From Candidatus Heimdallarchaeota archaeon (GTDB lineage Archaea; Asgardarchaeota; Heimdallarchaeia; Heimdallarchaeales; Heimdallarchaeaceae): a DNA stretch of 24,000 bases. The position numbers and the translations under genes are program-made. How positions within the stretch are numbered: position 1 is the stretch's first letter; each line of letters begins with the position of its first letter. Positions 1,069 to 20,242 of this stretch are shown here, piece after piece. Location: positions 10,740 through 34,739 of the forward strand of contig BPTK01000014.1 in NCBI GenBank assembly GCA_023705905.1. Reading direction: 5' to 3'. Below the pieces are notes generated by a model that saw only the letters and a program-made list of their open reading frames with translations, was not told where the DNA came from and did no database searches.

Positions 1069-3069
1069 CTATTCTCTTAATATTGCTTTACGTCTTTTCT
1101 TTAGAACTATAAATATTGATGCAATTGCAATTGGTAGCAGTAGAGAGAGAGAAAGGATATCACCATATTCAAAAACGACACTAGTCCATTCTACCTGTAT
1201 TATCTGATATCCTGCACATTTAGAGATTTTCACTTCGTTATCTAACGTTGCAGTAATATTGTAACTTTTCAATCCAGATGTAGTTTCAGTAAGTTGGAAG
1301 TTGAATAAACCTGAGGAATCTGTTGTTGTTACTGGATCTCCATCAATATACACTTCTGCGCCTTCAACTGGAAAACTATTGTGAACAAATACTACCTGTC
1401 CTGAAAATGTTATGTAATCTCCTATTTCTGCAGTAATTGCACTTGTTTGCACATTACGAACTTCAAGGTCTGTTATCGTCACACTCAGTGATGTCATATT
1501 TACTCCACAATTCGTTGTAGTAGTAATTAAATCAATGCTATATATTCCATAAGAAAGCGGATCAAGTTGCCAAACTATAGAGGTCAAACTGGGTCCTAGT
1601 TTATCTCCAATATCGATTGTAGCAGGAGTAATACTGTTTATTGCTCCAGGTAAATCTAGTGAAACACTAATTCCTTGGATATCCCAGCCATAAGTTTGAA
1701 CTCTGCAAGTAAGATTGAATGTTCCTTCAATTAGAGAAACCATAGGTGCTATATCATAATCTACAGTAAATTCATCGTAGATCCAATCTAATAATCTTAA
1801 CCAACCATTCCCATCCGTTCCGTATAATATTTCATTCACACCATCAGTATCAACATCTCCTACAGTGATAGATGGTACACTTGGTTCAATTGTATTCTCT
1901 ATATACTTTGTTTCATAATCTGTTCCGTTCCATTCACAGTACATCAATCGTACGTCTGGATACGTGGTAGATGTTGTGTAAATAAAGACTACTTCATCTT
2001 TTCCGTCATTATCAAAATCATTTACTTCAAACTCATTTTGTAGAAGATAAAAATCAGCAAATAGGGAAATATTCGGCATCCCATCATAAATCTCTATGCT
2101 ATCGGTGTCAAGAAATGCATCTCGTTTTACAGATACTACAATATCGTCCATTCCATTTCCTTTAAGGTCGCCTGTTTCCATCCAATTGAATCTTTCACTA
2201 TGCCACCCTGGAAATCCTCCAAGGATCTCATGATAAATAACACCTGTATCATAAGCAACATATCCCAATGTACAGTTATCAGAAGTTGAACAATATACAA
2301 TCTCATTACCATCGAAATCTGAAGTAAAATCTCCTATGGATACACAGACTCTGGATTGATTGGTCTGGACAATATCTTCTGCAATCCAATTATCAAGATC
2401 CTTTCTGTAAACAGTTACATTGCAATTGTCAAGATTATCAGGAAATCCTTGTCCAACAACTACAAGATTATCTGTATTTACTCCAACTTCACCCACAGAG
2501 ATGCTATAAACACCACCCTTGATTGGGTTTCCACCGTTAAGAAATTCCCCTTCTTGCCACGCATTGTTTGTTTTGTTGAATCTTACTACGTCTCCTAAAT
2601 ATTCTACAGTAAAGTATGTTGTGCCAACTATTATACTATTATTTCCGGTACCATCAATATCAGCTATTACTATATCTGATATAAATGATACACAACCGTA
2701 ATAATCGTAGGTGAAATTTGCTATTACAATTTGAGTGAATTCAACAGAGTTTTCATCTCCTGTATTTTCATAAAGTATAACACCACCATGTGGTCGAATA
2801 CCTATCACAATATCATTATCTCCATCATTATCTGCATCACCTACTGCTATGCAATCTATAGTATCCCAAAGTACTTGATCAAAGGTGAAGTTAGTTAATA
2901 AAGGATTTAAGGCTTCAAAATTGTTCTTTTGTTCACCTGGTTCTTCTTCCGAGGTTGGAAGAACATAGTTGTTATTACTTAGATTTGAGTAAGAAAAGTT
3001 TACACTCAAGAGTAGTATAATCATAAAAGCGATCACTAAATATTTCCTGCCTGTGATAAATTTTTTCAT
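1069..3069 (-). CDS. FG-GAP/VCBS-repeat (integrin-alpha-like beta-propeller) surface protein, N-terminal signal anchor and C-terminal TM anchor
   Basis: Repeated Ca-binding FG-GAP-type loops: VGDADNDGDNDIVIG, ADIDGTGNNSIIVG, TGDLKGNGMDDIVV, NDFDNDGKDEVVF, VGDVDTDGVNEILYG. N-terminal MKKFITGRKYLVIAFMIILLL looks like a signal or anchor. The C-terminal hydrophobic stretch LSLSLLLPIAIASIFIV is followed by KKRRK. A CarboxypepD_reg-like segment (VEGAEVYIDGDPVTTTDSSGLFNF) is present, along with many N-x-S/T sequons. The ATG at 3069 is preferred over the TTG at 3093 used by the ORF track. Confidence 0.8.
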   Translation of the reverse strand: MKKFITGRKYLVIAFMIILLLSVNFSYSNLSNNNYVLPTSEEEPGEQKNNFEALNPLLTNFTFDQVLWDTIDCIAVGDADNDGDNDIVIGIRPHGGVILYENTGDENSVEFTQIVIANFTYDYYGCVSFISDIVIADIDGTGNNSIIVGTTYFTVEYLGDVVRFNKTNNAWQEGEFLNGGNPIKGGVYSISVGEVGVNTDNLVVVGQGFPDNLDNCNVTVYRKDLDNWIAEDIVQTNQSRVCVSIGDFTSDFDGNEIVYCSTSDNCTLGYVAYDTGVIYHEILGGFPGWHSERFNWMETGDLKGNGMDDIVVSVKRDAFLDTDSIEIYDGMPNISLFADFYLLQNEFEVNDFDNDGKDEVVFIYTTSTTYPDVRLMYCEWNGTDYETKYIENTIEPSVPSITVGDVDTDGVNEILYGTDGNGWLRLLDWIYDEFTVDYDIAPMVSLIEGTFNLTCRVQTYGWDIQGISVSLDLPGAINSITPATIDIGDKLGPSLTSIVWQLDPLSYGIYSIDLITTTTNCGVNMTSLSVTITDLEVRNVQTSAITAEIGDYITFSGQVVFVHNSFPVEGAEVYIDGDPVTTTDSSGLFNFQLTETTSGLKSYNITATLDNEVKISKCAGYQIIQVEWTSVVFEYGDILSLSLLLPIAIASIFIVLKKRRKAILRE

Positions 3070-3346
3070 TTTTTTCACATCTTTGTGTATCAAATAAATA
3101 ATAAGTAAAACTCATTAATCAACTTTATGGAGTTATAGTGACATCTCCAATTTCATCTACGATGTTTTTTTCCGTATCTAGTTTTACCTTTTGCTGAACA
3201 AGTGTAAAAATTCATAGCTAGGGTTTAATTTTCGCTCCAAAGTAATTTATTGAAATAGGTTTCCACAAACTAAACAAGAATCAATTAGTTCAAGCTTTTA
3301 GTAAAAGATAAAAAAAGAAGTAAAAGGAATAGGAAGTTAGTTCTTT

Positions 3347-5430: not shown

Positions 5431-6627
5431 TTATGTCTCTTTCTCTGTCGTTTTTTCTTGCTCTTCCCATTGTGAATAGAGATCATCCAATAGAACCATT
5501 AAATCACCCATTATTTCGACTGATTTTGGTTTAATTATTCCATTTTCTATTATCACTTCTATATCACTAGACCCAACTAACTCAAGAAAGATTTTCATGA
5601 ATTCTTTTTCGGAAATCTCTAATAAATCAATTGTTTGCTTGATGTTTACCTCTCCATAAACCTTTAGAATTCCCTTAATCTGTTTAATCTGAGATTCTCT
5701 TAAATATGACTGGTCTATGTTAGTTTCTTTTTTTATGAAATTTATTGAATCGCGTATTTTACTTAATGCTGAAGCTTCAATCTTTCTTATAAGAGAATTA
5801 TCGCAGAATAATCTAGTTTTGGTATTATATTCAAAAACTGTTAAATTTGATAGCCCAACCAATGGTGAAATATCAAGCTCATTTAAATTTGAGCAATTAA
5901 CACCCAATTTATTTAATTTTAAACATTTCTGCATAGGTTTTAAGTCAAGTTCACTCAAATTATTATTCGACAAATCTAAATCGTCTAGATTCACAGCATT
6001 GTTTAAAGGTGTAAGATCAATAGATCCTATTTGATTATTGGATAAATCAAATTTCGTTAATCTTTCACAGTTCGTTAATGGTTCTAAATCTATCTCATCC
6101 AATTTACATTGAGTTAGATTTAGCCGTTCTAAATTACTAAGAGATTTGAATACTCCAAGGTCTAATTTAGTGAGAGGGGTCCAACTAAGATCCAATATTT
6201 TGAGATCACGGCATTCTGATAGAGGTTCAAAATCAATTTTTTCAATATCGCTAAATGAGAGAGAGAGGTTCTTCAACTTGACACATTTTTGTAAAGGTTT
6301 CAAGTTCAATTCTTTTATAGGATTACCTATTAGAACTAGAATTTCAAGTGAATTACATTTACTTAAGGGGCTTAAATCTAATTTGTAAATGTTATTCTCA
6401 TATAGATTCAATTCCAATAAATCTGTACAATGACGAACAGGTTCAAGATCAATATAACTTAATCTATTGTCATTGAGATAAATTTTCTGTATTTGAGGAC
6501 AGTTTCTTAATGGAGATAAATCTACTTCATGCCAGCCTTGTCCCTGAAAATCTAAAATCTTAGAAGTTTCACAATCTTTTTCTATTAGATAAGTTTCTCC
6601 ATCTGACAAACAAGTAAACTTAACCAT
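5431..6627 (-). CDS. leucine-rich-repeat protein with C-terminal winged-helix-like module and LLDDLYSQWEE tail
   Basis: About 11 tandem 22-residue LRRs with the pattern L..L.L..N.I..(I/L)DL.PL..C, for example LDLSPLSKCNSLEILVLIGNPIKELNLKPLQKCVKLKNLSL. No N-terminal signal peptide or TM segment. The C-terminal 75 aa resemble the shared module found in three neighbouring proteins. Confidence 0.8.
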   Translation of the reverse strand: MVKFTCLSDGETYLIEKDCETSKILDFQGQGWHEVDLSPLRNCPQIQKIYLNDNRLSYIDLEPVRHCTDLLELNLYENNIYKLDLSPLSKCNSLEILVLIGNPIKELNLKPLQKCVKLKNLSLSFSDIEKIDFEPLSECRDLKILDLSWTPLTKLDLGVFKSLSNLERLNLTQCKLDEIDLEPLTNCERLTKFDLSNNQIGSIDLTPLNNAVNLDDLDLSNNNLSELDLKPMQKCLKLNKLGVNCSNLNELDISPLVGLSNLTVFEYNTKTRLFCDNSLIRKIEASALSKIRDSINFIKKETNIDQSYLRESQIKQIKGILKVYGEVNIKQTIDLLEISEKEFMKIFLELVGSSDIEVIIENGIIKPKSVEIMGDLMVLLDDLYSQWEEQEKTTEKET

Positions 6628-6791: not shown

Positions 6792-7658
6792 ATGGCTTTC
6801 TTTGATGACATCAATAATATCATGTATGTTGTTTTGGGTGTTATAGGATTAATTGTAATAATTCTCTTGATTTTTGCTCTAAAAGGTACTTTCTCTGACG
6901 TAAAGTTGAAGCGAAAGGCTAAATCTCTTGGTTTTCGTACTATTAAAGAGATGCACTCTCGTCAATCTGAAGGTTTTGAAAGTAAACCTGAGTTTGACAA
7001 CATCTCATCTTTAGGTTTTACAGATAAACAAGAATTCCTTTTTGGTGAAAAACTTGGTACTAGAACTCAAGAAGAAATGTATAAGAAATTGAATCAAACT
7101 GTTAAAGATTTGCTTGATCTAATGGAAGATTATAAAATTGACCTCCCTAAATTAGATAATGAAGTCACCTTAGTTTTATCACTTGACAAAATGACTGAAA
7201 TCTCTGAAGAGTTTACTCAGAAGCAAACTATCTTCAATAAGTTGCGAGAAGAGGTTAACAGCTATCCAAAAGAGAAAGTTATTGATCAAAGCAAGATAAA
7301 CATCCCCAAAGAAATAAAAGATTTACAAAATGAAACTGCAGCTAAGCTTTATTCTGTCAAGAATACACTTGACGTGAGGATGGAGTATGTTACTGAGCGA
7401 ACAAGTATAGTGGAATTGCTTAATCAGTTCAGGCCTAATGTTCCTGTCAATCTTAATAGGGTTGGAGAGATATCTAAACTGTCTTTAAAGGATGTCGAAT
7501 CCTTTTTGAAAGACATTGTCGAAGTTAATCCTGAAATAGGGGAATACTTAGAACTTGAGCAAGTTTTTATCAGGAAGACTGACACTGAAATACAAATTGA
7601 TGAACTCTTGAATCAATTCCAAAAATGGGAAGTTGAAGGAGAGGGGAAGAAGAAGTAA
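6792..7658 (+). CDS. N-terminally TM-anchored helical protein with C-terminal winged-helix module (DDRGK1/UFBP1-like layout)
   Basis: TM segment IMYVVLGVIGLIVIILLIFAL at residues 10-30, followed by about 170 aa of charged helical sequence. The C-terminal module is ELLNQFRPNVPVNLNRVGEISKLSLKDVESFLKDIVEVNPEIGEYLELEQVFIRKTDTEIQIDELLNQFQKWEVEGEGKKK. Confidence 0.7.
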   Translation: MAFFDDINNIMYVVLGVIGLIVIILLIFALKGTFSDVKLKRKAKSLGFRTIKEMHSRQSEGFESKPEFDNISSLGFTDKQEFLFGEKLGTRTQEEMYKKLNQTVKDLLDLMEDYKIDLPKLDNEVTLVLSLDKMTEISEEFTQKQTIFNKLREEVNSYPKEKVIDQSKINIPKEIKDLQNETAAKLYSVKNTLDVRMEYVTERTSIVELLNQFRPNVPVNLNRVGEISKLSLKDVESFLKDIVEVNPEIGEYLELEQVFIRKTDTEIQIDELLNQFQKWEVEGEGKKK

Positions 7659-7719
7659 GTTTGCAGTCTTCTAGGCAAAAGATATTTTAAGCTTGATTCA
7701 TTATCCTCTATGGTTGACA

Positions 7720-8406
7720 ATGGAATTAATCTTAACTGGGAAAAAAAAGAAGAAAAATTTTCGTAAAAAAATCAAGGACGATATTAGAAAGTTAGATCTT
7801 ACAAAAAAGAAGTTAACAGAGATAGACCTTACACCGCTCGAGCAGTGTCATCAGATCTATACAGTTAAGTTGAGTAACAATAAAATCTCTTCAATCAATC
7901 TAACTCCTCTAAGCAAATGTAAATCTCTTATCAGCGTATATCTAGAATATAATCCTCTTTCTTCAATTAATTTAGCTCCTCTTATCAAATGCCCAAAACT
8001 TGACAAAATTTCTTTTTCCAAGAATACTAAAATTGAATGGTTAGATGAAGAGTTTGACGTTTTTGCTATCCCAAGAGGGTTAAGACCTTATCTCAACCAA
8101 ATTAAAAAAGCACATGGTTCTTATGTTACTGAAACAGCAGAGCAAAAGCAAAAAATTGCTCACGAAAATGCTCCTGAGAAAATTACTGCTCTTCTCAATG
8201 AATTCCGCCCTGGTGTTCCTGTCAATGTTAATAGGGTTGCAGCACTAGCCGAAATACCAGTTGACGTTACCAAATCAATTATTTTAGAGATATTGGAACA
8301 CATGCCTGACGTTGGAGAATTCCTAGAACTGGAAGAGGTTTTTATTCGTAAAACAGAAGCTGAGATAGAGATAGATAAACTCTTAGATCAATTTCAAGAA
8401 TGGTAA
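7720..8406 (+). CDS. short leucine-rich-repeat protein with the same C-terminal winged-helix/LLDQFQEW module
   Basis: Three to four LRRs of the same Cys-containing type (IDLTPLEQCHQIYTVKLSNNKISSINLTPLSKCKSLISVYLEYNPLSSINLAPLIKCPKL). The C-terminal module ALLNEFRPGVPVNVNRVAALAEIPVDVTKSIILEILEHMPDVGEFLELEEVFIRKTEAEIEIDKLLDQFQEW is paralogous to that of 6792-7658. The ATG at 7720 is preferred. The ORF track uses a TTG at 7693. Confidence 0.7.
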   Translation: MELILTGKKKKKNFRKKIKDDIRKLDLTKKKLTEIDLTPLEQCHQIYTVKLSNNKISSINLTPLSKCKSLISVYLEYNPLSSINLAPLIKCPKLDKISFSKNTKIEWLDEEFDVFAIPRGLRPYLNQIKKAHGSYVTETAEQKQKIAHENAPEKITALLNEFRPGVPVNVNRVAALAEIPVDVTKSIILEILEHMPDVGEFLELEEVFIRKTEAEIEIDKLLDQFQEW

Positions 8407-8437: not shown

Positions 8438-9091
8438 TCAAAGGAACCTATGTTCTAAAGGTATTCCTAGTCCTGTTAGTGAAAATCCTTCGCTCGACAA
8501 ACCCATTTTAGTTAGCAAATCAACAACTGATGATTCTATCATCATCGATAGCTCTTCTCTACTTATTTTCTGTATTTCCTCGATGGAATATTGTCCCGAA
8601 AGTTCTCTCATTGCTTCTTTTATTATAAACAACACTTGCATTCTCATTTCTTTGGAAGAGAATTGGATTGAATCTTTTAAAATATTCAAGCAGAATACTT
8701 TCGGAGCGGAAATAGAAATCGATAGAGAACCTGACGCACCTATTTGTACATTATCTTTGGTTAATACTCCTTGTTCTTGAGGTATTCCCCACTTAACATT
8801 AAAAGACTGTCCTTCCAAGAAAACAATCTTCAAACCTTCTGTTCCTTTCTTCCTTTCTATTTTAAACATACCACTAGCTAGTTCGTCAATTATCTGCTCG
8901 TTTTCTATTACTACTGCTTTCTCAGCTATCTTTACTATCATCCCCTCTGTTTTCTTCAAATCAAAATCCTTTTGCCAGTTTTCATGAGCATGTGGATAAA
9001 CCCATGCAATCGTTTCTGAATCTCTTTCGCTTTTGATTATTCTTTTATCGTCAGAAGGACTAAAATCCTTTTTAATTATGAAAGACATCAT
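8438..9091 (-). CDS. SPFH/band-7-like protein (YdjI / COG4260-like)
   Basis: The motif order matches my recollection of the B. subtilis YdjI family: ETIAWVYP (compare DTLLWRYP), a beta-rich core with WGIPQEQGVLTKDNVQIGASGSLSISI (compare WGTPNPITLRD...RAFGIYSYRI), and a C-terminal helical part ending GFSLTGLGIPLE (compare SSFVVENISLPEE). A strong SD (GAGGTGA) sits just upstream of the ATGATG start, 11 nt after the stop of the upstream gene. Confidence 0.6.
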   Translation of the reverse strand: MMSFIIKKDFSPSDDKRIIKSERDSETIAWVYPHAHENWQKDFDLKKTEGMIVKIAEKAVVIENEQIIDELASGMFKIERKKGTEGLKIVFLEGQSFNVKWGIPQEQGVLTKDNVQIGASGSLSISISAPKVFCLNILKDSIQFSSKEMRMQVLFIIKEAMRELSGQYSIEEIQKISREELSMMIESSVVDLLTKMGLSSEGFSLTGLGIPLEHRFL

Positions 9092-9102
9092 TTCACCTCT
9101 AT

Positions 9103-10137
9103 TTATTGTTCAATTTCATAAAGCCCTGGGAAGTAGATCTTGTTTCCAGAACTGTAATCCTCATCAACTATTGCTAACCCTGTATCCTCTAGTTTCTTTA
9201 TCATTTGCAACACTCTTTCTATTGGCAGTTTGCATTCATTAACAATTTCTTCTCTTGTAGTATATCCCTTCTCCTTCGCTATTTCCATAATGTCTCTATG
9301 AATACTTGAATCATCGGCGAGAACAATAGTCATAGGAGTGTTGGAAGTCTTTTCTATAACACCAAGAATCCCTGAATCTTGTAGTTCAATAGCTACTCTT
9401 TCAAGATCTTCTACCTTAAACTCTACGTCAGGATATCGTTTTTGGAATATTTCAATGGTTTGGGAAAATTCTATAGATTTGATATCCTTCTCCATTAGAC
9501 TTAAACAAGTCTTGTGGAAATATTGTTTCAGTTTTTTGAAGTATTGCTTCTTATTGAAAAGTAAGGGTCTTGTTAATTCTTCATATTCATGGATTAGACC
9601 AAGAGTTTCAAGATAAGCTATATCACCTTCAAAGTCCTCACCTAATTTGCCAAAAAGGTCTTGAGAGGGTGCTAAAGTGTTAGTTAATACTCTTATCTTC
9701 AGCAAATCATCTATCTTTTGAACAGAACTCAATAGAAGAACTATTAGATCACGTACAGCTCCTTCACCTAAGGATAAGATGGTTCGCTCTAGATTTTGTA
9801 ATCCAACAGAAAAATCTTCAAATCGTGATAGTAATAAGAAATCTAGAATAATTATGGTTTCATGATGAAGAGTTAACTTTGTGGTATCCGTTTGTTCTAT
9901 TTGAGAGACAGTAGCAATTAATGTTTCAAATTGTGTTTTAACACCATCAACTGTAGTCTTTAGTTTTAGAAGAAGTTTCTTATTTTCTATTTTCAGATTC
10001 TTCATTATTGATAGGATATAATTTCTAACATCAATTATTCTTGAGTTAATCTCTAATTGAATTTTAGATTCATAACCATGAAATTCATTTACATTCGGAG
10101 GGAACTTAAGAAACTCTAAAGACATTTTTCCTGTCAT
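9103..10137 (-). CDS. helical protein with two C-terminal winged-helix domains
   Basis: 344 aa. The N-terminal 200 aa or so are predicted helical or coiled. The C-terminus carries two WH-like units: VEDLERVAIELQDSGILGVIEKTSNTPMTIVL and YTTREEIVNECKLPIERVLQMIKKLEDTGLAIVDEDYSSGNKIYFP. It appears co-transcribed with the SPFH gene (11-nt spacer containing an SD). Confidence 0.55.
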   Translation of the reverse strand: MTGKMSLEFLKFPPNVNEFHGYESKIQLEINSRIIDVRNYILSIMKNLKIENKKLLLKLKTTVDGVKTQFETLIATVSQIEQTDTTKLTLHHETIIILDFLLLSRFEDFSVGLQNLERTILSLGEGAVRDLIVLLLSSVQKIDDLLKIRVLTNTLAPSQDLFGKLGEDFEGDIAYLETLGLIHEYEELTRPLLFNKKQYFKKLKQYFHKTCLSLMEKDIKSIEFSQTIEIFQKRYPDVEFKVEDLERVAIELQDSGILGVIEKTSNTPMTIVLADDSSIHRDIMEIAKEKGYTTREEIVNECKLPIERVLQMIKKLEDTGLAIVDEDYSSGNKIYFPGLYEIEQ

Positions 10138-10299: not shown

Positions 10300-13200
10300 C
10301 TACTTTTTCTTCCCTGTTCCTGTTTCTTCCCAGTTAGAGAATTGTTCTAGTAAATCATCAATAGCTGTTGTCATGTCTTCTCTCAACTCTGCACCTTCAA
10401 CTCTAGCTTCAAAGATTATCTCATCTCCTTCTATTCTATGAGGATATTCTAATGAGTAGATGTTTAACCAAGCTTTTAGTGATTTTTCGGTTTCAAACTC
10501 TACCAATGGTTTAAGTCTTGAAGTTGTTATTCTAGAGTAAGTATCTCTAATCTTTGCCAAACGGTCTAGTTTTTGATTATTGATTGTAGAGTTACTAATA
10601 ATTGGTGTTAATTCTTCAATTACTTTCTCAGTATTTTTTGAAGTTTCATGAACTATTGTAATTTTATCTTCAACTAAAGAAGTAATCGAGGAACTAAATG
10701 TTGAAGGAAGTTCAGCTAGAATCTCTCTGGAAGCACTAATATTGTTTCCTAATTCTTTTGCATTAGATAAGAAAGAAAGTAACTGAACATAACTAAATAA
10801 TACAGGTTTGAACCCTTTTTCTGACCAATTATGAGCTAGTCCGGATATAAGATCATTTGTAAAAGCATCAAGATTTTCAGCTGTTATCAAATTTATTGTA
10901 TCTAGTATTGTGCATCTGAACTTGTCTTCTAAGAAAGTTCTAGTACTTTTAAGAACACTTTCATATGTACTAATTTTATCTTTGCTAAATGACCTCTTTT
11001 TTGAATAAATGAGCATTAAATCTCTTGTTAAATCACTCAAAGATATTGTAAATTGATTGATTCTATCTATTGAAGAAGTTAAATCAAAAATAGTTGAAAT
11101 ATTAGTGAAAATGTCTTTAAATTCCTTCATTAATAAAGTATCATGCTTTCCTTGAAAGTTGTTCATGGTTCTTCTTAAGAGTAATTTCCTCTTTCTTGAG
11201 CGTATTAAACTTACAACCACAAGAGTTACTAAAGATAGAACAATTAATGGTAGAACAGCATAATATAGTATTATTTCAAATGTATTTAGATAGTTATCAA
11301 AACTTATTGGATTTTGATCATTTTGAACTTCCCATCCATCACTTCTTCCGTCCTCATCTGTATCGGGATTGGTTGGACTTGTAAAATAAAGATTGACTTC
11401 ATCACCATCGGTTAATCCATCATCATCAGAATCACTGTTATTGGGATCAGTCGAATAAGTATTTATCTCCGCTCCATCGGTTAACCCATCATCATCTGAA
11501 TCAGCATCATTAGGATCTGTATTATATGCACTTATCTCCGCTCCATCGGTTAATCCATCATCATCAGAATCAGCATCGTTAGGATTTGTAGAATTTTGAT
11601 ATTCTTCAAGATTAGTCAACCCATCAGTATCTAAATCACTAGAAGCATCATCAATTAGGGGATTGAGATCATTAGCTACTTCCCAACCATCAGGCATAGA
11701 ATCTGTATCGCTATCGTTATTACCAGGATCTGTGCCTTGGAGATATTCTTGAAGATTAGTTAAACCATCTGCATCTAAATCAAAAGCAGAATCATCAATT
11801 AAGGTATCTAGACCATATAAATTCTCCCAATCATCAGGCATATTATCACTGTCCTGATCCAAAGGTATATCATAAAAAACAATGTTACTCCAGTCAGAGA
11901 GCAAACCGTCTTCATCCATAGCTCTAACTCTAAAAAATTGAATCGGATCAGCACCAAGAATAACACTATAAAGCTGTATTGTCAAATAAGTTACATTATT
12001 TATTTCCCATCTTGCATAAGCTGCAGAACCTTCCCAGGGGGAGGTGACATCTGATTCTTCTACTATATATGAAACAATATATCCATCCAAGTCTTTAGAA
12101 GAGGACCAAGTTAGATTATACATTGAAGGTACTGTTTCCGGATGTATTTCTTCTAACTGAGGAGTTGAAGGTTTCGAGGAATCAACCGTATATTCAAATA
12201 TCTTTGACAGAGAGACTTTTCCAGATGTATCATTAATTTCGAAATAATATTGTATAGTTGTTTGATAAGGTAATTGTTGCTCAAGAATGTTATTTACGTA
12301 CAATGAAGCACCCAAATAATTTCCGATAGAAGATGTCCAAATTCCTCCTTGTATCTTATATGTGCAAATTACTGTGTCAACTTTCACGTCATCAACAATT
12401 CTTGATTTAATTGCAACCCTCCAAGATTCTACTAAATAATTACACTCTACAGAATTAATTGTAGGAGGTAGTAAATCATCATATTTAGTTGGGTAAGCAT
12501 CAAATGAACCCGCGCTTCCTTCAATAGAATAATTACCAACTTCGTTCCAATCTGACCAACAATTACCAAGAAACAGGCTTTCTTCATACCACATATTGTT
12601 TATTCCATAATCACTAGCTTGTATATTTCCACCTTTGTTACCTGCAAAGATATTTCCGTAAAAAATATTATTATCGGAACCGTAAGTTACGTAAACACCA
12701 TAATCAACGCTTGATAGAAAAAGATTATTTGATATATTACTATCATCCACATGGGACAATATTAGCCCAATGGCTTCCGAATTAATAGTATTGTTATAAA
12801 ATGTCAAATTATTTACATTTTGTGCATTAATAGCAGTAAAACGTCCATTTTTCACAGAGCAATTTGTTAATGTAATCGTCTCTGAATTCGCAATTTGTAT
12901 TCCATTCCAATTATTATTGGAATGAATATTTCGCAGAGTAGTATTAATACAATCTAATATCAAAACACCTAGATCTGAATTTGATACATCAATATTTAAA
13001 ACGGTAATATTTATACAATTTAATAAAAACATTTGTCCATAATCAACAGAATCTAACGTTTGATTTTCAATATTTGTACAATATCCAAAAGCTTTGCTGT
13101 TTATGCTATTATTGTATATGAAATATTTTAAATAATTTGCAATATTTGCTTCGTAAATAAATAAACCATCATTAATCAAAGTATTGTTACTTATTGTTGT

Positions 13201-13896
13201 ATAAGTTGAAATTGAAATTGAGATTCCATATCTTGAATTATTTTCACATGAATTTAACGTGATATTTGAACTTCCAGAAGCAACTAACTGAATGCCGATA
13301 TCATTATCTGTACAAGTGTTATTTATAATCTTGCAAGAAGGAGAATAATCTACAAAAAGACCATATTCTGAGCATTTTACAAAAGTGTTATTTATTACCT
13401 GAGCTGTACCTTGCGCAGTATTACTAATAAATAACCCATTTTGTCTAGCTTCAAAAAAACAATTTTGTACAATAAAGTGTTTTGTAGTTAACTTAATTTG
13501 TAAAGCATAGTCTAAGTGAGGAACTACTATTTGATAATTTTCAATTAAGTACGGAGCCTCTTCAGTTCCAGAGCCATTAAAACCATTGTCTACAAAATCT
13601 TGGTCTGATATTATTAGTAATGATTCATACAAAGTTGTAACATATGAACTTTTTATTTCTGATAATGTATCTGAAACATTTTTACCATCAAGAGGAGAAT
13701 TGAATGGTTTGATGATATTTTCAGTTGAGATAAAACTTCCAGAATTTGTTAAATTTCTACTTTCTTCAGGAAATATTAAGAACGATACCAAAGAATACAA
13801 TATTAACATTAACAAAAGAAAGCTTATTTTATATCTAGTAAATTTTTTGTAAATAGTATTTAAAAGAGCAAGATATTTATGAGTCTTAACATTCAT
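10300..13896 (-). CDS. giant single-pass receptor-like surface protein: parallel beta-helix (PbH1) + TSP3-like Ca-binding repeats + TM + cytoplasmic domain with shared WH/LLEQFSNWE tail
   Basis: N-terminal anchor ISFLLLMLILYSLVSFLIF. It has more than 10 PbH1-type repeats (NNTFVKCSEYGLFVDYSPSCKIINNTCTDNDIGIQLVASGSSNITLNSCENNSRYGISIS...). D-rich repeats follow (DSDNMPDDWE, DLDADGLTNLQEY, DADSDDDGLTDGAEI x3). A second TM segment IILYYAVLPLIVLSLVTLVVVSLI is followed by RSRKRK. The cytoplasmic region of about 290 aa ends in AIDDLLEQFSNWEETGTGKKK. Confidence 0.85.
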   Translation of the reverse strand: MNVKTHKYLALLNTIYKKFTRYKISFLLLMLILYSLVSFLIFPEESRNLTNSGSFISTENIIKPFNSPLDGKNVSDTLSEIKSSYVTTLYESLLIISDQDFVDNGFNGSGTEEAPYLIENYQIVVPHLDYALQIKLTTKHFIVQNCFFEARQNGLFISNTAQGTAQVINNTFVKCSEYGLFVDYSPSCKIINNTCTDNDIGIQLVASGSSNITLNSCENNSRYGISISISTYTTISNNTLINDGLFIYEANIANYLKYFIYNNSINSKAFGYCTNIENQTLDSVDYGQMFLLNCINITVLNIDVSNSDLGVLILDCINTTLRNIHSNNNWNGIQIANSETITLTNCSVKNGRFTAINAQNVNNLTFYNNTINSEAIGLILSHVDDSNISNNLFLSSVDYGVYVTYGSDNNIFYGNIFAGNKGGNIQASDYGINNMWYEESLFLGNCWSDWNEVGNYSIEGSAGSFDAYPTKYDDLLPPTINSVECNYLVESWRVAIKSRIVDDVKVDTVICTYKIQGGIWTSSIGNYLGASLYVNNILEQQLPYQTTIQYYFEINDTSGKVSLSKIFEYTVDSSKPSTPQLEEIHPETVPSMYNLTWSSSKDLDGYIVSYIVEESDVTSPWEGSAAYARWEINNVTYLTIQLYSVILGADPIQFFRVRAMDEDGLLSDWSNIVFYDIPLDQDSDNMPDDWENLYGLDTLIDDSAFDLDADGLTNLQEYLQGTDPGNNDSDTDSMPDGWEVANDLNPLIDDASSDLDTDGLTNLEEYQNSTNPNDADSDDDGLTDGAEISAYNTDPNDADSDDDGLTDGAEINTYSTDPNNSDSDDDGLTDGDEVNLYFTSPTNPDTDEDGRSDGWEVQNDQNPISFDNYLNTFEIILYYAVLPLIVLSLVTLVVVSLIRSRKRKLLLRRTMNNFQGKHDTLLMKEFKDIFTNISTIFDLTSSIDRINQFTISLSDLTRDLMLIYSKKRSFSKDKISTYESVLKSTRTFLEDKFRCTILDTINLITAENLDAFTNDLISGLAHNWSEKGFKPVLFSYVQLLSFLSNAKELGNNISASREILAELPSTFSSSITSLVEDKITIVHETSKNTEKVIEELTPIISNSTINNQKLDRLAKIRDTYSRITTSRLKPLVEFETEKSLKAWLNIYSLEYPHRIEGDEIIFEARVEGAELREDMTTAIDDLLEQFSNWEETGTGKKK
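11396..11590 (-). repeat. in-frame 69-bp tandem repeat (about 2.8 copies) encoding DADSDDDGLTDGAEI(S/N)xY(N/S)TDPN
   Basis: The unit ccatcggttaa(t/c)ccatcatcatc(a/t)gaatca recurs at 11405, 11474 and 11543, a period of 69 nt (23 aa). It lies inside CDS 10300-13896. Confidence 0.8.
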
Positions 13897-14150: not shown

Positions 14151-14720
14151 TTACTCAACTTCTTTTTTTTCCCAGTGCTCAATTATCAGATTCTGTTGTG
14201 CTGCCCACCAATAAAACACCTCTCTAATAAAGAAGTGACTTATTGTTAATCTTGGATTCCAAGCTTCATCTACTGTTTCCATGTGCTCATGACAGATCAT
14301 AACGAACTTTTCTCCGTTCTCTTCTTCCCAGATATTCTTCAAAAACACTTTTCCTGCATATTCTGCTATTGATTCTTCTGCAAAAGCTCTCGGGCATGCA
14401 TTTGGATAAGCACTTGGTAGAAGTATCACCATTTTGAACCTTATTTCTGGTTTAGATGGTACTTGCAAATATCCATCCCACTTCATAAAATTGTATTTTG
14501 GGTTCTTACTTGGAGCTAGGAAAAACCAACTTTTCCCTCCTTTTTTCTGTAAAAATTGAACATATTTTGCTAGATTTAATATTTCTATTTTCACTCTTTC
14601 CTGCCATTTTGGATGCTTTGGATTAATTTCAGTTAGTGCTTCGGGGAACTTAACTAAAACTTTCTCTGCTAGCGTCTCTTCCCATTTATTGTTTTCTTCT
14701 GTTATTTGAATGACCCCCAG
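14151..14720 (-). CDS. UFC1-like E2 (UFM1-conjugating-enzyme-like); start codon unresolved
   Basis: Matches to my recollection of human UFC1: WFFLAPSKNP (compare WFRLESNKEG), a catalytic-Cys context FVMICHEHM (compare GKICLTDHF), and no HPN motif. The ORF track starts at a GTG at 14594. However, the frame is open back to 14720, and the extension (..LAEKVLVKFPEALTEINPKHPKWQERVKIEILNL) aligns with the UFC1 N-terminal helix (..[33 protein letters not shown]). Confidence 0.8.
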   Translation of the reverse strand: MGVIQITEENNKWEETLAEKVLVKFPEALTEINPKHPKWQERVKIEILNLAKYVQFLQKKGGKSWFFLAPSKNPKYNFMKWDGYLQVPSKPEIRFKMVILLPSAYPNACPRAFAEESIAEYAGKVFLKNIWEEENGEKFVMICHEHMETVDEAWNPRLTISHFFIREVFYWWAAQQNLIIEHWEKKEVE

Positions 14721-14724
14721 TTAT

Positions 14725-14988
14725 TTATCCTACTATCCCACGGTTGATAACTTGAAAAGCTGTTCCGTATTTGTTTATTATCTCATCCACTGTAGAGTTG
14801 AAATCTGTTATTGTAAGAGTGTTACCCATTTCTGAAGATACAGCTATCTGCTCAGTTGCTATACTGAATTTCTTTGCAACTTCTACAACTAATTCGTGGA
14901 AAATTATTTCTCCTGGTGTTTCAAAAGGTATCTGTTTATGTTCTGTTCCAACAACATTTGTAAAGTATATTCTTTTTAGTGAACCCAT
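14725..14988 (-). CDS. UFM1-like ubiquitin-fold modifier with pre-exposed C-terminal Gly
   Basis: 87 aa. ELVVEVAKKFSIATEQIAVSSEMGNTL and the terminal AFQVINRGIVG-stop parallel human UFM1 [27 protein letters not shown] and ELRIIPRDRVG(SC). It has a single terminal Gly preceded by Val, as in mature UFM1. Confidence 0.8.
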   Translation of the reverse strand: MGSLKRIYFTNVVGTEHKQIPFETPGEIIFHELVVEVAKKFSIATEQIAVSSEMGNTLTITDFNSTVDEIINKYGTAFQVINRGIVG

Positions 14989-15026: not shown

Positions 15027-16079
15027 TTAAATCTTTTTCGCTAAATCCTCAACAATTTGAGCGATTTTAGCGAAATTTTCTTCTTTTTCTATGTTATTTT
15101 TGGTATTTCTAATCGTTTTTAACATTAACTCCCTCTTTTTCTCATTTTTTGAAGAGAAATATTCTACTCTAAATTCCAATAGCTGAAGGAAAGAGAGTAT
15201 AGATTCTTTATCTTTCTTCGAAACATAAAATTTCCAATTTACATTATCATAAAGAAATTCTATTCTTACCGGTTTAGATATTTTTCCCTCCGCTATTATA
15301 GTGTTTTTCAGCTGATAATACATGTCATCTATGAATGCTTGTTTCATCAAAGGTTTTATTGAAGAGAGAGTAGTTTTTTCTTGTGCGCATATGTTAGCAT
15401 GCAAATCCATAGTAAACACCAAATCATCAGCTTTTGCCAGATTATCTTCAAACACTGAAAATCTTACAAAACACTCATTTCCTTCAAGTTTGTCTGTAGA
15501 TATTGATCCACTTAACAGATTTTGTTTGTATTCTATCTGTTTAACTTCAAAACTTTCCAAAATCTCCCTCATTCTAGATGAAACTGTTTGAATATCTAGT
15601 TCAGTTCCTTGAGGAAGATTAATTTTTGCCTTTGCTATGAATCTTATTGATTGTGGTACTTTTATTGAACTAACCTTTACTTTGATTTCCTCTACAGATT
15701 CATCTTTCAGTTGGTAATATTTTGTCTCTTTCACATTGGTAACTATTGATAAGAAATATGGATAAACTGATGCAAACTGTTTAACTGTGTGATTATCTGT
15801 AGAACTATGGAACACTTTTCCTACATGGGAGTGATAGATCCCCACTATCCCTATTCCCCTAGGAATTGCTTTTGAGATTTCCATTACCTCTTCTTGTGAA
15901 GGCTCAGCAATTATTTGATTTTGCATTTTATATTGTTTGCAGGGAACACTTGAGACGACGAATAGCTGATCCTTATAGTCATAACCTAGCAACCAACCAT
16001 AGATTTCTATTGTAGGAAAAGCATATGCATGTCTCTTTATATCGTCTGCTACACTATTGCAAACATTTACTTTACTCAT
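15027..16079 (-). CDS. JAB/MPN+ (JAMM) metalloprotease with about 220-aa C-terminal domain of unknown function
   Basis: N-terminal 130 aa or so contain the Glu of EIYGWLLGY and the motif YHSHVGKVFHSSTD, which is HxH-x6-S-x2-D, one residue shorter than canonical HxHx7Sx2D. The start ATG overlaps the E1 stop as ATGA at 16076-16079. Confidence 0.8.
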   Translation of the reverse strand: MSKVNVCNSVADDIKRHAYAFPTIEIYGWLLGYDYKDQLFVVSSVPCKQYKMQNQIIAEPSQEEVMEISKAIPRGIGIVGIYHSHVGKVFHSSTDNHTVKQFASVYPYFLSIVTNVKETKYYQLKDESVEEIKVKVSSIKVPQSIRFIAKAKINLPQGTELDIQTVSSRMREILESFEVKQIEYKQNLLSGSISTDKLEGNECFVRFSVFEDNLAKADDLVFTMDLHANICAQEKTTLSSIKPLMKQAFIDDMYYQLKNTIIAEGKISKPVRIEFLYDNVNWKFYVSKKDKESILSFLQLLEFRVEYFSSKNEKKRELMLKTIRNTKNNIEKEENFAKIAQIVEDLAKKI

Positions 16080-16942
16080 TCTTCTACCTCCTTTATTTCT
16101 TCTTCCAAATCTTCCATTAATTCTGACAATTCTTTGCCTTCGGTTAATTTTTCTATTTTTTCAAAAGATTGCTTTTTTTCCTTTTTAGAGAAGATTTTAT
16201 CTCCACAAACATGGCAGTTTGGATCATTTGGCATGGTTTGCTTTAGATAATGGTCTGTTAAAGCGTTAAACCCTATGTAATCTGGTATCGTTCCAAATTT
16301 CAGTAGATACTTTAAACTTATTTCAGTAACAAATGAAGCCACAATTGCTATTGTTGAAGGTAGAGAAGCTGTACAATCTTTGCCCTCTTTCTTCTCTCCC
16401 AAATCTATTGAACCTGTGCAAGCATAGCAAGCATTTTCTCGTGGTTTAACTAAGTGTACATACCCTCCTAAACCAGAACGTGTTGCTCCTGAATCTACGT
16501 ATGGACGATTAAGTTCGACACATTTACTGTTGACATACAATCTTGCTGGTAAATTATCCAAACATGAGATTGTGAGACTATTATCATTTATCAGTTCATC
16601 AAACTTCTCTTCGAAATCAGATGAACACACATCTACAAAATAACCATTTATTTCCACATCAGAATTTATTTTCTTTAAAACATCCTCTGCTGCTTTAACC
16701 TTTGTTTGACCAATCTGATCTACTGTGTAAAAGAGTCTATTTAGATTAACTTCTTCTACATAATCTAAATCGATAATATTCAACTCTCCCACCCCACATC
16801 GTGCTAGCATTTCAGCAGCTACACTCCCCACGCCCCCCACACCTATTATCAATACGTTCATTTTGGCAAGATCGAGCCAATCTACCTCTAGTCCAAACTC
16901 ACTCAATGATTTCAATCTTGTATAGCGATTTTCATCTTCCAT
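16076..16942 (-). CDS. UBA5-like E1 (ThiF/MoeB-fold adenylating enzyme of the UFM1 branch)
   Basis: [41 protein letters not shown] compares with recalled human UBA5 [41 protein letters not shown]. The catalytic-Cys block [30 protein letters not shown] compares with [30 protein letters not shown]. Zn-site pairs CYAC and NPNCHVC compare with CFAC and NPQCDDRNC. It has a single-domain, minimal E1 architecture with an acidic C-terminal tail. Confidence 0.9.
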   Translation of the reverse strand: [288 protein letters not shown]

Positions 16943-17198: not shown

Positions 17199-18953
17199 TT
17201 AATCCTCCTTCTTCCTAAAACCTCTATTTAACAAAGAAAGAACAAAAACACCTGTGATTCCAAGTAAATACAAAGCATTTGTTTGCTTTAATTCTATATC
17301 TACTGTAAAATGAACAATTTTTGTTCCCAAATTACCTTTAATGTCTCTTGCTGTAATAGTAAACTCATATTTTCCACCAGTCAAATTGTAATAACTGTAT
17401 TTTATATAGTACGCATTACTCAATAGAGTTGAGCTGTCGTTAAGGATAAGATTAACTTCGTCAAGTTTAGAATTATCATAAATAGACCATGTTACAACAA
17501 TATCTTGAGAATCTAAGATTTCATTCTCTTCAGGAGATGTTATTGATATTAATGGTTCCAAATAATCTTCTAGGATTACTTCATCATCTATCAATATTAG
17601 TGGTTTTAAATCAGTATAGGTTACAGAATAGATAGGTATTCTTTCTATTCCATAGACATATTTTTGGAAATCTTCTGTGAAATCCAAACCAGAAAATTCA
17701 TTTAATTCTTGTAGTAGTTCTGGTGTAGACATGAGATTTTCTGGAATATCAGAACCTGCATATGTTAAATTGTATTTGCTTATCCACAATTGCATAAACT
17801 GATTTAAAGTCAAGGAAGCATTATTATAAAGAATTTTATGAAGATACAGAGCAAATATTTCCCCCTTTACATAATAAGTTCTTGCATTTGGAGTCATGAA
17901 ATAGACCGGCATGTCTACAAGAGGCAAATCTAATCCTTCAGCTATAAACTCATCATAATATGGAAGTTCGGCACTATTAATGAAATCAACAGCTGTAAGA
18001 GGTTCTAAACCAAGATTACCATAAAGCGAATCAAATCCTTCCAAGATCCATTTATCTGAATCTTCTGTAACTGGGTCAAAATACTCTCCTCCATAATTAC
18101 GTTCAACATTTATCACTGCACCTATCCATGCATGACAAACTTCATGGCTCTGTTTGGAACCTGATTGGCTCATCAACCACTCTATTTCCGAAGGTGGATA
18201 AAAAAGCCCTAAAGTATCTTCAGCTACTATTGCACCATCATTTTGTATTACTATTCTATATTCATCTATAGGAAAGTACAAGAATTTATACCATAGTCTG
18301 TTGAAGATGTTAAACCACTTATCAGCTACATTTTGCTTGTTGTATGACGTTGAAACCTCATTACCAAAAGCAATCACAACCTTAACTCCATGTAAGTGAT
18401 ATTCATAAACATCATGTGTTTCACTAGAATAGTTCAAATAATCTGCAGGATACCAGATGTATTTCCAATTACGGTACTCTTCCCAAGAAGAAGTAGGAGC
18501 GCTTATATCATTTGAATCAATAGGTGTCATTACTTTGATATTTTCTGATGTTGTTAATACAATCCCTTGATTATCTAGAACGTTTAAGTAATAGGTATAA
18601 TCTGTTCCATAAACATGGTTTGTAAAAGTAAATTCTGATGTTTCATTATCAAAAACACCGATCAGATCAATTCTATCAATGAATTTGCGATAAACCTTAA
18701 CTCCAGTGTAATCACCAATTATATCCCAACTTACTAGGACAGATGAATAGTTGAGAACATTCAATGAAAAATCATCAATAGATGGAACTGTAACAGATTT
18801 AAGTTGATTTATTAGTGACGAATTATTGCCCATCCCAATATTTATCGGAACAAAAGCTTGACAAACAAACCAAATTGAAAATAAAAAGAAAAGATATTTT
18901 CTTGATTTTTTAATATTAGAAAGCAGAAACAATTTCTTAGCAGCTGAACTCAT
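17199..18953 (-). CDS. surface-anchored gluzincin (M1-like, HExxH...EGF) metallopeptidase with FN3/Ig-like domains
   Basis: HEVCHAWIG followed 30 residues later by WILEGFDSLYG, comparable to the M1 pattern HExxHxW.G...W(L)NEGFA but with a longer spacer. N-terminal signal or anchor YLFFLFSIWFVCQAF. C-terminal TM segment ALYLLGITGVFVLSLL followed by NRGFRKKED. Beta-rich FN3-like N-terminal and Ig-like C-terminal segments. Confidence 0.7.
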   Translation of the reverse strand: MSSAAKKLFLLSNIKKSRKYLFFLFSIWFVCQAFVPINIGMGNNSSLINQLKSVTVPSIDDFSLNVLNYSSVLVSWDIIGDYTGVKVYRKFIDRIDLIGVFDNETSEFTFTNHVYGTDYTYYLNVLDNQGIVLTTSENIKVMTPIDSNDISAPTSSWEEYRNWKYIWYPADYLNYSSETHDVYEYHLHGVKVVIAFGNEVSTSYNKQNVADKWFNIFNRLWYKFLYFPIDEYRIVIQNDGAIVAEDTLGLFYPPSEIEWLMSQSGSKQSHEVCHAWIGAVINVERNYGGEYFDPVTEDSDKWILEGFDSLYGNLGLEPLTAVDFINSAELPYYDEFIAEGLDLPLVDMPVYFMTPNARTYYVKGEIFALYLHKILYNNASLTLNQFMQLWISKYNLTYAGSDIPENLMSTPELLQELNEFSGLDFTEDFQKYVYGIERIPIYSVTYTDLKPLILIDDEVILEDYLEPLISITSPEENEILDSQDIVVTWSIYDNSKLDEVNLILNDSSTLLSNAYYIKYSYYNLTGGKYEFTITARDIKGNLGTKIVHFTVDIELKQTNALYLLGITGVFVLSLLNRGFRKKED

Positions 18954-19144: not shown

Positions 19145-20242
19145 GTGAAGGTCGTTACTGGTAAAATTAAACTCGAACTTAGAAACGGTATATGTATAGA
19201 TTCCCCTCAGGTTTCAGAACTAGATAGAGACTTCCAAACTTATTATGGTTACATTTACAGTTCCTCTTTTGGTCGAAATTCTTCTGTTTTTGCTGAAATT
19301 ACTGAAATTAATTATGAAACAGACAATAACGAGTCGATTATCAAACTTGACAAGAGAATTGCTGGAGAGATAGCTGATAATGACATAGCAAGTATGATCA
19401 TCTCTCCTGCTCCTCCCCAAGCAGACACAGTTTTTCTCGCCATCCCCAGCTCTGTTGGTCTCCCCCAAGGAGATTGGACGAATATTGTTAAAGAGAGCAA
19501 TTTGGGTAAAATAGTCGATTATGGCAATAATCTTAGTTTCGTTGTTCCTTCAGAGATTAGAGAGCCTTATGTAGTTCAAAGTCAGATTCTCACCTCTCTT
19601 CCCTATCCTCCTGTTATCATCCACGAAGGCACTAAGTTTCAGATACTAAAGAAAGACCAAGCCAACCTTGCTGTTAGTTTGCAGAAAGGATATATTTCTA
19701 GGAGTAAACGAGCTAAAGATTTAGAGGTTAGAGTAGCAGCAGGTTACCATGAACAATTATTGGCTTTGAAAAATGGTCAGCTAGAAAATCTGGGAAGATC
19801 TCTGGAGTTCACTACTAAACCAAAGACAGCTTTTGAAGCTATAAAAACAGCTTTTACAACTTACTATACTATTGAAGAAAACGTCACCATTGATACTGAA
19901 ACCAATTTTGTTGGAAACATCATGTTCGCAACTAGTAAAGATCTGCAAAACATTCAACTTGTTGAAATGATTGTCAGTGGTAAGGATAATGCTGGCCTTT
20001 TAGCCATTTGGATTTATGGTGAAAATAGACCAGTTATTGAAGAAAAATTGCAAAAAGAAATTCTACCAAAAATAGGTATAGTAATTGAGGGGATGAAGGA
20101 AGGACCTGAACTAATTCAAATGTATTGTGCTGGAAATTGCGGAGAAATGTTGAAACTAGAAGATATGGCAGATAATGGTATAATTCAATGTCCAGCATGT
20201 GATACACCGAACATGATACCATCGAGATTAAGAATTCACTAA
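19145..20242 (+). CDS. stand-alone Cdc48/VAT N-domain-like protein with C-terminal zinc ribbon
   Basis: The first 170 aa or so follow the VAT-N pattern. IIKLDKRIAGEIADNDIASMIISPAPPQADTVFLAIP compares with VRIDSVMRNNCGASIGDKVKVRKV..AKKVTLAPI. QSQILTSLPYPPVIIHEGTKFQI compares with FKVVKTLPSKVPVEIGEETKIEI. No AAA+ Walker motifs follow. The C-terminus has CAGNCGEMLKLEDMADNGIIQCPACD (4 Cys). It has a GTG start with no obvious SD, so the start is uncertain. Confidence 0.55.
   Translation: MKVVTGKIKLELRNGICIDSPQVSELDRDFQTYYGYIYSSSFGRNSSVFAEITEINYETDNNESIIKLDKRIAGEIADNDIASMIISPAPPQADTVFLAIPSSVGLPQGDWTNIVKESNLGKIVDYGNNLSFVVPSEIREPYVVQSQILTSLPYPPVIIHEGTKFQILKKDQANLAVSLQKGYISRSKRAKDLEVRVAAGYHEQLLALKNGQLENLGRSLEFTTKPKTAFEAIKTAFTTYYTIEENVTIDTETNFVGNIMFATSKDLQNIQLVEMIVSGKDNAGLLAIWIYGENRPVIEEKLQKEILPKIGIVIEGMKEGPELIQMYCAGNCGEMLKLEDMADNGIIQCPACDTPNMIPSRLRIH

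Follow-up and report, generated by a model that had tools for sequence, protein, structure and literature searches.

The stretch of DNA analysed here (the window) comprises 24,000 nt of Candidatus Heimdallarchaeota archaeon (contig BPTK01000014.1 of assembly GCA_023705905.1, positions 10,740-34,739) and is AT-rich, with a G+C content of about 32%. Our subject is a gene in this window, hereafter the target, whose product crosses the membrane once and has a winged helix (WH) module at its C-terminus, together with a nearby cassette for the conjugation of a ubiquitin-like protein (Ubl), which is of the UFM1 type as judged by an E1 with its best matches in UBA5, a UFC1-family E2 and a Ubl candidate ending in VG. 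Eukaryotic UFMylation depends on an unusual E3 that is tethered to the endoplasmic reticulum and built of winged helices (UFL1 and DDRGK1), and a first-pass annotation of the window had proposed the target as an analogue of DDRGK1 (UFBP1). We describe the locus (Table 1), the domain family to which the C-terminal module of the target belongs, and the reading that this module may dock its carrier proteins to the conjugation machinery.

The membrane protein and the UFM1-type cassette

Table 1. Coordinates of the features of the locus, as positions in the window.
Feature	Position	Strand	Basis
Target gene, 288-aa single-pass membrane protein (transmembrane helix, mini-repeats, helical stalk, WH module, tail)	6792..7658	+	ATG-started open reading frame (ORF); orthologues; AlphaFold predicted local distance difference test (pLDDT) 82
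Transmembrane (TM) helix, residues ~10-30	6819..6881	+	Kyte-Doolittle 19-mer mean up to 3.24; helix in AlphaFold model
Basic juxtamembrane stretch KLKRKAK	6903..6923	+	Sequence; positive-inside rule
Four ~14-aa mini-repeats '(L/E)G(F/T)xxxxE(F/M)', each a predicted short helix	6924..7091	+	Sequence; model helices 51-59, 65-73, 79-87
Helical stalk, three long helices, residues 93-210	7068..7421	+	AlphaFold pLDDT 90-98
C-terminal module: winged helix, wing 'GEYLELEQVFIRK' the most conserved part	7359..7655	+	Model pLDDT 85; 141 cluster representatives at E ≤ 1e-3
Tail: amphipathic helix 'IDELLNQFQKWE', then 'GEGKKK'	7584..7655	+	Model helix, module positions 80-98; tail hidden Markov model (HMM) 21 bits
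Adjacent leucine-rich repeat (LRR) protein that also carries the WH module (at 8149-8403) and stops at the tail tryptophan	7693..8406	+	Pfam LRR; module HMM E 2.6e-31
C-terminus 'LDDLYSQWEEQEK' of LRR protein 5431-6627, possibly a degenerate tail	5452..5490	-	Tail HMM 3.4 bits, E 0.27: weak
Same tail 'AIDDLLEQFSNWEETGTGKKK' at the C-terminus of a 1198-aa NosD/TSP3 receptor (gene 10300-13896)	10303..10383	-	BLASTP 52% over 27 aa; tail HMM E 1e-3
SPFH/Band-7 protein without TM helix, conserved neighbour	8438..9091	-	Pfam Band_7_1 1.5e-9; syntenic in L001 and L002
ESCRT-II Vps22/SNF8-like tandem-WH protein, 344 aa, with ~195-aa helical N-terminal extension	9103..10137	-	Pfam EAP30; profile versus PDB gives human SNF8 at 3e-6
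UFC1-family E2; gene probably reaches upstream to ~14720	14151..14594	-	L002 orthologue passes Pfam UFC1 gathering score; PDB matches UFC1
87-aa ubiquitin-like candidate ending ...RGIVG	14725..14988	-	Sequence and orthologues
JAB/MPN protease with ~220-aa C-terminal extension	15027..16079	-	Pfam Prok-JAB and JAB
UBA5-like E1	16076..16942	-	Pfam ThiF 5.7e-49; C-terminus resembles the UBA5 UFC1-binding sequence

The target gene is real and conserved, because word-indexed searches recovered identical or near-identical proteins (86-89%) as well as orthologues at 55% and 42% identity; the named orthologues come from metagenome-assembled genomes of Candidatus Heimdallarchaeaceae, and further orthologues are present in metagenomes. 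The full-length protein has no significant match in Pfam or PDB sequence searches, and Foldseek with the full-length model likewise returned no significant match (E ≥ 0.36), with CSN2 ranked first. The layout described by the first-pass annotation, in which a TM segment is followed by a helical region and a C-terminal WH, is present in the 288-aa protein, as seen in its hydrophobic segment and in the AlphaFold models. There is a single strongly hydrophobic segment, and the basic flank of a TM helix faces the cytoplasm (the positive-inside rule), so the basic stretch that follows the helix places the bulk of the target in the cytoplasm. The orthologue at 42% identity (P0007) carries an additional hydrophobic segment at its N-terminus, ahead of the TM helix, and this signal-peptide-like extension is consistent with a predicted N-out topology.

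In place of the long charged helix that had been likened to that of DDRGK1, the cytoplasmic part has amphipathic helices of ordinary charge (per 24-residue block) that come after the four mini-repeats. In the full-length model the stalk helices span residues 93-127, 131-160 and 175-210, each with pLDDT above 90, and the stalk has no significant fold match in PDB. The juxtamembrane mini-repeats ('LGFxxxxEF', residues 45-100) are kept in the orthologues and are found in several or extra copies in two RING-type relatives (P0034 and P0023). They match no known repeat family, and their identification as SHOCT domains was rejected because Pfam does not support it.

The UFC1-like E2 of the cassette begins 6.5 kb from the target, at the distance that the annotation had given. 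The E1 finds its best PDB matches in UBA5 at 5e-55, compared with 5e-22 for MoeB. The assignment of the E2 comes from its orthologue in L002, one of two orthologous loci described below, which scores 30 bits against the Pfam UFC1 profile (gathering score 25 bits) over nearly the whole profile, and whose top seven PDB matches are all UFC1. The Ubl candidate has no Pfam or PDB sequence match. The C-termini of the E1 proteins in the window (16079-16140, minus strand), L001 and L002 read 'GKELSELMEDL', 'GKSLSELMGDL' and 'GKDLSNILDEL', and resemble 'GESLEDLMAKM' of human UBA5 (checked against PDB 7NVK), which suggests that the way in which E1 docks to E2 in the UFM1 system has been kept. We also considered the tail of the target as a mimic of this UFC1-binding helix. 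The likeness is by eye, and the tail HMM gives both the E1 C-termini and the UBA5 peptide scores no better than background, so that mimicry is kept as a hypothesis and not used as evidence.

The E2 ORF of 147 aa is probably truncated: positions 14595-14720 (minus strand), in frame upstream of it, encode 'LGVIQITEENNKWEETLAEKVLVKFPEALTEINPKHPKWQER', which matches the N-terminus of the 189-aa L002 orthologue, and this sequence contains no ATG, GTG or TTG, so that an unusual start or a change in the start codon is indicated. Next to the E1 end of the cassette lies a gene for a protein of 365 aa (19145-20242, plus strand), which is kept there in L001 and L002 as well (E 1e-138 and 6e-132). The protein matches nothing in Pfam, has a zinc ribbon (CxxC...CxxC) at its C-terminus and may be a further component of the system. 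The tandem-WH neighbour of the target was considered as a UFL1 and rejected, as it matches SNF8/Vps22 (3e-6). A search confined to the locus found no Pfam match to UFL1.

The first-pass annotation had named co-occurrence with the cassette in other genomes as a check on its proposal, and the linkage of target and cassette is in fact kept in three divergent lineages, represented by the window and by loci L001 and L002, in which the target protein is 55% and 42% identical, respectively. In L001 and L002 the order is the TM-WH gene, then (where present) the LRR-WH gene, and then on the other strand the genes for the SPFH protein, the EAP30-like protein, the E2, the Ubl, the JAB protein and the E1, and every counterpart in the window is strongly matched. 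The E2 gene follows directly after the EAP30-like gene in L001 and L002, while in the window the gene for the 1198-aa receptor sits between them. The receptor homologue in those two loci lies on the other side of the TM-WH gene, so the tail-bearing receptor stays in the locus and only its position differs.

The winged-helix module as a domain family

The C-terminal ~100 residues of the target were poorly modelled from the shallow full-length alignment and were therefore re-modelled with an alignment of 88 diverse homologues, which gave a pLDDT of 85 for the module and ~93 over the WH core. The resulting model shows the classical winged-helix order H1-b1-H2-H3-b2-b3, after which module positions 80-98 form a C-terminal helix. 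Conservation is strongest in the wing, 'GEYLELEQVFI(R/K)' (G61 100%, F70 91%, E67 88% and a tyrosine 83%), and R34 is conserved at 88%. Within an otherwise low-confidence terminal tail, G96 and K97 are kept in 62% and 65% of sequences. The WH core is acidic (median net charge -2, isoelectric point 5.2), with a median charge of -1 on helix H3. A module that is acidic and whose wing, rather than H3, is its most conserved part fits a protein interface better than DNA binding, and DNA binding by the module seems unlikely from these sequence properties.

An exhaustive search with the module HMM yielded 141 cluster representatives (50% identity) at E ≤ 1e-3, in proteins of 52 to 1625 aa, and all named members belong to Heimdallarchaeota or Hodarchaeales. 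Judged by searches with the 88 module sequences, no Pfam family covers the module, nor is it described in the literature that we searched. The module defines a predicted WH family that is absent from Pfam and so far confined to Heimdallarchaeia. Its members are frequently fused to other domains: Pfam searches of 110 full-length relatives found RING fingers of three kinds (24 zf-RING_2, 9 Prok-RING_1 and 6 C3HC4) and a range of repeats (14 LRR, ~10 TPR, 6 WD40, 6 HEAT and 11 TSP3), a set such as E3 ligases and the receptors for their substrates draw on. The module comes after the LRR, TPR, WD40 or receptor parts of its carriers. At least two CxxC motifs, indicative of RING or Zn fingers, follow the WH in 64 of 139 relatives, and a tail of the form 'IDxLLxx(F/Y)xxWExxGxGK' follows it in ~60; the tail and the RING/Zn finger are alternative endings at the same position after the WH.

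The tail-type relatives are more often membrane proteins (22 of 36) than are the RING-type relatives (12 of 64). In 30 clusters a TM segment lies upstream of the C-terminal module, and these include multi-pass proteins, headless single-pass proteins like the target, and receptors with ectodomains of ~400-1100 aa. A region homologous to the stalk of the target precedes the module in receptor-type and RING-type relatives. Because both mini-repeats and stalk are recognisable upstream of the module in these relatives, the conserved cytoplasmic unit consists of repeats, stalk and WH, and then either the tail or a RING.

Within the window, the full module is otherwise found only in the adjacent LRR protein, whose module is 54% identical to that of the target and whose gene is adjacent in L002 as well. 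The first-pass annotation had described paralogous WH modules on the LRR and receptor proteins of the locus, and this is true of the LRR protein at 7693-8406; the receptor has in common with the target only the C-terminal tail, which is kept in its L001 orthologue and which is placed in the cytoplasm by a TM segment at residue 872, and the LRR protein at 5431-6627 matches that tail marginally. The further suggestion that such proteins may be interchangeable adaptors agrees with the occurrence of the module in proteins of several kinds, with LRR, TPR, WD40, receptor or RING parts.

Several members of the family occur in other contexts. On contig CAZRLL010000140.1 of an 'uncultured archaeon' (L035:3296-4684, minus strand), a protein of 462 aa has LRR, a run of charged repeats of the 'EERRRQE' type and the WH module, and ends in a RING-like domain with multiple cysteines; a second module protein, of the tail type, is encoded 1.4 kb away. 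An LRR-WH-tail gene on the same contig as L048 (L069:1659-2125, plus strand) is apparently split into ORFs of 87 and 62 aa beside a TnpB/Cas12f-like gene and may represent a disrupted copy. The present locus has a 492-aa TnpB/Cas12f-like protein at its edge (21239-22717, minus strand; Cas12f1-like_TNB, 3e-14). The locus is flanked by two further single-pass surface proteins that carry neither the WH module nor the tail, one with FG-GAP repeats and a C-terminal TM segment (1069-3093, minus strand) and one with Ig/fn3 domains and a possible M61 peptidase motif (17199-18953, minus strand).

A proposed docking adaptor and competing readings

We tentatively read the target as a membrane-anchored docking adaptor for Ubl conjugation that works like DDRGK1 without being a member of its family, a reading that we regard as a serious possibility falling somewhat short of probable. 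The WH-plus-tail unit would most likely act as a protein-protein docking module that plugs its carrier into the conjugation machinery, which at this locus would comprise the UBA5-like E1, the UFC1-family E2, the VG-ended Ubl and the JAB protease, with the Vps22-like tandem-WH protein and the SPFH protein proposed as further parts. The target, with its tiny exterior and cytoplasmic body, would be a minimal 'headless' member of the family whose effect is to tether or organise that machinery at the membrane, the same task as that of eukaryotic DDRGK1/UFBP1, reached through a different WH family. We infer that the WH and tail bind components of the cassette and that the role is that of an adaptor rather than a substrate.

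The view of the module as a docking element draws together its fusions to RING and recognition repeats, its acidic and conserved wing, its weak affinity to PCI domains and the conserved operon. Foldseek searches of PDB with the module model are led by PCI proteins that belong to complexes related to Ubls (CSN2 and, from the proteasome lid, Rpn5/6/9) or to eIF3, with E-values of 4e-3 to 3e-2, root-mean-square deviations of 12-16 Å, and alignments that span the WH and its flanking helices. Similar to F-box and SOCS-box proteins with LRR or WD40 repeats and to transmembrane RING E3s, the family combines a small conserved docking domain with LRR, TPR, WD40, HEAT or receptor parts, and many of its members carry a RING directly. 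It differs from these modular E3 adaptors and receptors in that its fold is a WH, it has no sequence relation to them, and it is so far known only in Heimdallarchaeia.

Several observations weigh against the adaptor reading. The Foldseek E-values are weak (best 4e-3), and the PCI matches are interleaved with the DNA-binding WHs of BrxR, CapW and GntR; WHs of methyltransferases are also among the matches. The synteny is backed by only three independent loci. The other module genes (L035, L041/L067, L048, L062-L066 and L068) are scattered, with no cassette gene within the available flanks, so linkage in cis to UFM1-like genes is not a property of the module in itself. The fusions to RING point to canonical E2s rather than to UFC1-type E2s. 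An A1-based scan of the genome collection found no true relative, a degenerate DNA pattern for ELEQVFI[KR] marked 56 loci in that collection, of which only three are real (L035, L041 and L048), a metagenome scan gave 8 loci, and among the scanned loci from both sources the cassette was found only at the known orthologue locus. The link to the cassette is thus specific to the orthologous group of the target and its two or three locus partners, and not to the module generally.

The alternative that fares best makes the target a substrate, with the WH as a recognition handle and the lysines of the 'GxGKK' tail as sites of Ubl attachment, by which membrane and receptor proteins would be marked for sorting (ESCRT-II-like or SPFH) or turnover. 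DDRGK1 and the C-terminal tail of RPL26 are themselves UFMylated in eukaryotes, and the conservation of G96 and K97 in the terminal tail, the retention of the tail in the receptor and its orthologue in L001 despite their divergent WH, and the bias of tail-bearing proteins towards the membrane all speak for such a role. However, the LRR-WH proteins stop at the tryptophan, without the GK tail, and roughly half of the family has a RING in place of the tail, as would suit an effector better than an acceptor. We consider the substrate role unlikely, although worth keeping in mind.

The Foldseek result also allows the target to be read as a PCI-type subunit. The target, the LRR protein and the receptor would then line up side by side through their WH and C-terminal helices and form, with the JAB/MPN protein, a small deconjugation complex at the membrane that resembles the proteasome lid or the COP9 signalosome. 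PCI subunits (CSN2, Rpn5/6/9 and eIF3a/c; PF01399) resemble the target in their succession of helical region, WH and C-terminal helix and are its best, though weak, structural matches, with CSN2 first again for the full-length model. They occur alongside a JAB/MPN protein in Ubl-related machinery, and the conserved cluster has a JAB/MPN protein with a long C-terminal extension. Against this, the matches are weak for the module and for the full-length model alike, Pfam PCI is matched weakly by only 4 of the 88 modules (best E 0.0028), fusions to RING are not a PCI feature, and the target has a TM anchor and a much shorter helical part than PCI subunits. This reading strikes us as improbable.

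A slightly poorer prospect is that the target partners the TM-less SPFH protein or anchors it to the membrane, much as in the operon pairs of NfeD and stomatin, and that the Ubl genes are mere neighbours. The SPFH gene is always next to or near the TM-WH gene, but the pairing leaves unexplained both the RING and repeat fusions of the module and the tail common to the receptor and LRR proteins, and Pfam shows no NfeD similarity in the target.

We next weigh the possibility that the target is a true but very divergent DDRGK1/UFBP1 orthologue, whose WH descends from the DDRGK domain. The two proteins are alike in having an N-terminal TM anchor, a cytoplasmic body, a helical middle and a PCI-like WH near the C-terminus; the target is also associated, by gene neighbourhood only, with an E1 like UBA5, an E2 of the UFC1 family and a Ubl ending in VG, and it is proposed, like DDRGK1, to tether a UFM1-type system to the membrane. 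A published study places the origin of UFL1 and DDRGK1 in Asgard archaea, and UFC1 and UFM1 only in eukaryotes (PMC10183829), and UFM1 homologues have been reported in Asgard archaea (PMC12962969). In the literature that we searched, no archaeal UFC1/UBA5 operon is described and no paper brings Heimdall lineages together with UFC1 or UBA5.

The sequence resemblance to the DDRGK domain that the first-pass annotation had seen proves to be one of fold only. Its alignment has one gap and 11 identities in 57 positions, which is better than composition shuffles; this is not specific evidence, because shuffling also destroys the hydrophobic pattern common to any pair of WHs. The Pfam DDRGK profile, PF09756, is not matched at E ≤ 1 by the target or by any of the 88 module sequences, BLASTP of the target against human DDRGK1 (the query sequence being an exact match to PDB 8OHD chain C) finds nothing in the WH (best E 8), and the module profile finds no DDRGK1 or UFL1 chain in PDB. 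When the 88-sequence module profile was compared with a 116-sequence DDRGK profile by hhalign, the probability was 2% (P 0.023), with H1-H3 in register and the conserved wing misaligned to another element. For calibration, the DDRGK profile was compared with the WH of the ESCRT-II-like neighbour and scored 3.8%; the score between module and DDRGK is therefore one that WH families reach without being related. PDB contains five DDRGK1 sequences, none of which is among the top 50 Foldseek matches. Since several DDRGK family members also match Pfam PCI, a PCI-like WH is a class-level feature of both proteins, and nothing more specific was found: the profile and structure searches support the kind of WH that the annotation had foreseen and not a preference for DDRGK.

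There are also differences in architecture. After its WH the target has a single helix and the GK tail, where DDRGK1 has a partial WH that pairs with and completes UFL1, and an element for a composite WH like that of UFL1-DDRGK1, for which the annotation had suggested a test, is missing. The linker of the target is a folded stalk with mini-repeats and ordinary charge, whereas that of DDRGK1 is a hyper-charged helix; the target locus has no UFL1 partner; and the module of the target, unlike DDRGK, is promiscuously fused to RING and repeat domains. Taken with these differences, the profile comparisons leave orthology to DDRGK1 very improbable. The WHs of ESCRT-II (Vps22/SNF8, Vps25 and Vps36; EAP30) are no closer relatives: they too are acidic and protein-binding, and a genuine Vps22-like gene lies two genes away, but the module is a single WH and not a tandem, its hhalign probability against the profile of the neighbouring Vps22-like WH is 0.3%, and Pfam EAP30 is matched neither by the target nor by the 88 modules.

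That the target is a membrane-tethered DNA-binding regulator with a generic MarR/PadR/GntR-like winged helix-turn-helix (HTH), unrelated to the Ubl genes, as the BrxR, CapW and GntR matches and the sporadic, sub-threshold matches to regulator HTH families in Pfam (at most 3 of 88 modules) could suggest, was rejected on the charge of the WH core and of H3 and on fusions to RING, LRR, TPR and WD40 rather than to ligand-binding regulator domains, and it retains next to no credibility in view of the conserved wing and the conserved synteny with the Ubl cassette.

Implications for Heimdallarchaeia

Heimdallarchaeia are an Asgard lineage close to the ancestry of eukaryotes, although their exact placement is debated. 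What is new here is a WH family in a Ubl context that is proposed to act in adaptors, for which homology to DDRGK1 is not supported and functional analogy is plausible; the target can accordingly be regarded as a plausible functional analogue of DDRGK1 and not as a demonstrated homologue.

A wider picture can be drawn, which we offer as speculation and consider doubtful as a whole. It would be that of a prokaryotic, membrane-tethered UFM1-type machine in which the PCI-like WH-plus-tail serves as a common docking handle with a 'proto-E3' logic. The handle would join the headless anchor, LRR proteins and large surface receptors to the UFC1-like E2 and the Vps22-like scaffold, while its RING-fused versions would serve canonical ubiquitin E2s. 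Such a machine would be an archaeal analogue or forerunner of the UFL1-DDRGK1 ligase, and would link UFMylation-like tagging to the membrane biology of ESCRT and SPFH proteins.

If the module is unrelated to conjugation, the finding shrinks to a lineage-specific WH family. If it is a docking element, the locus supplies concrete, testable proteins from which an archaeal UFM1-like pathway and its membrane targeting could be reconstituted, and the new domain family would also mark dozens of candidate RING E3s and receptors in these archaea.

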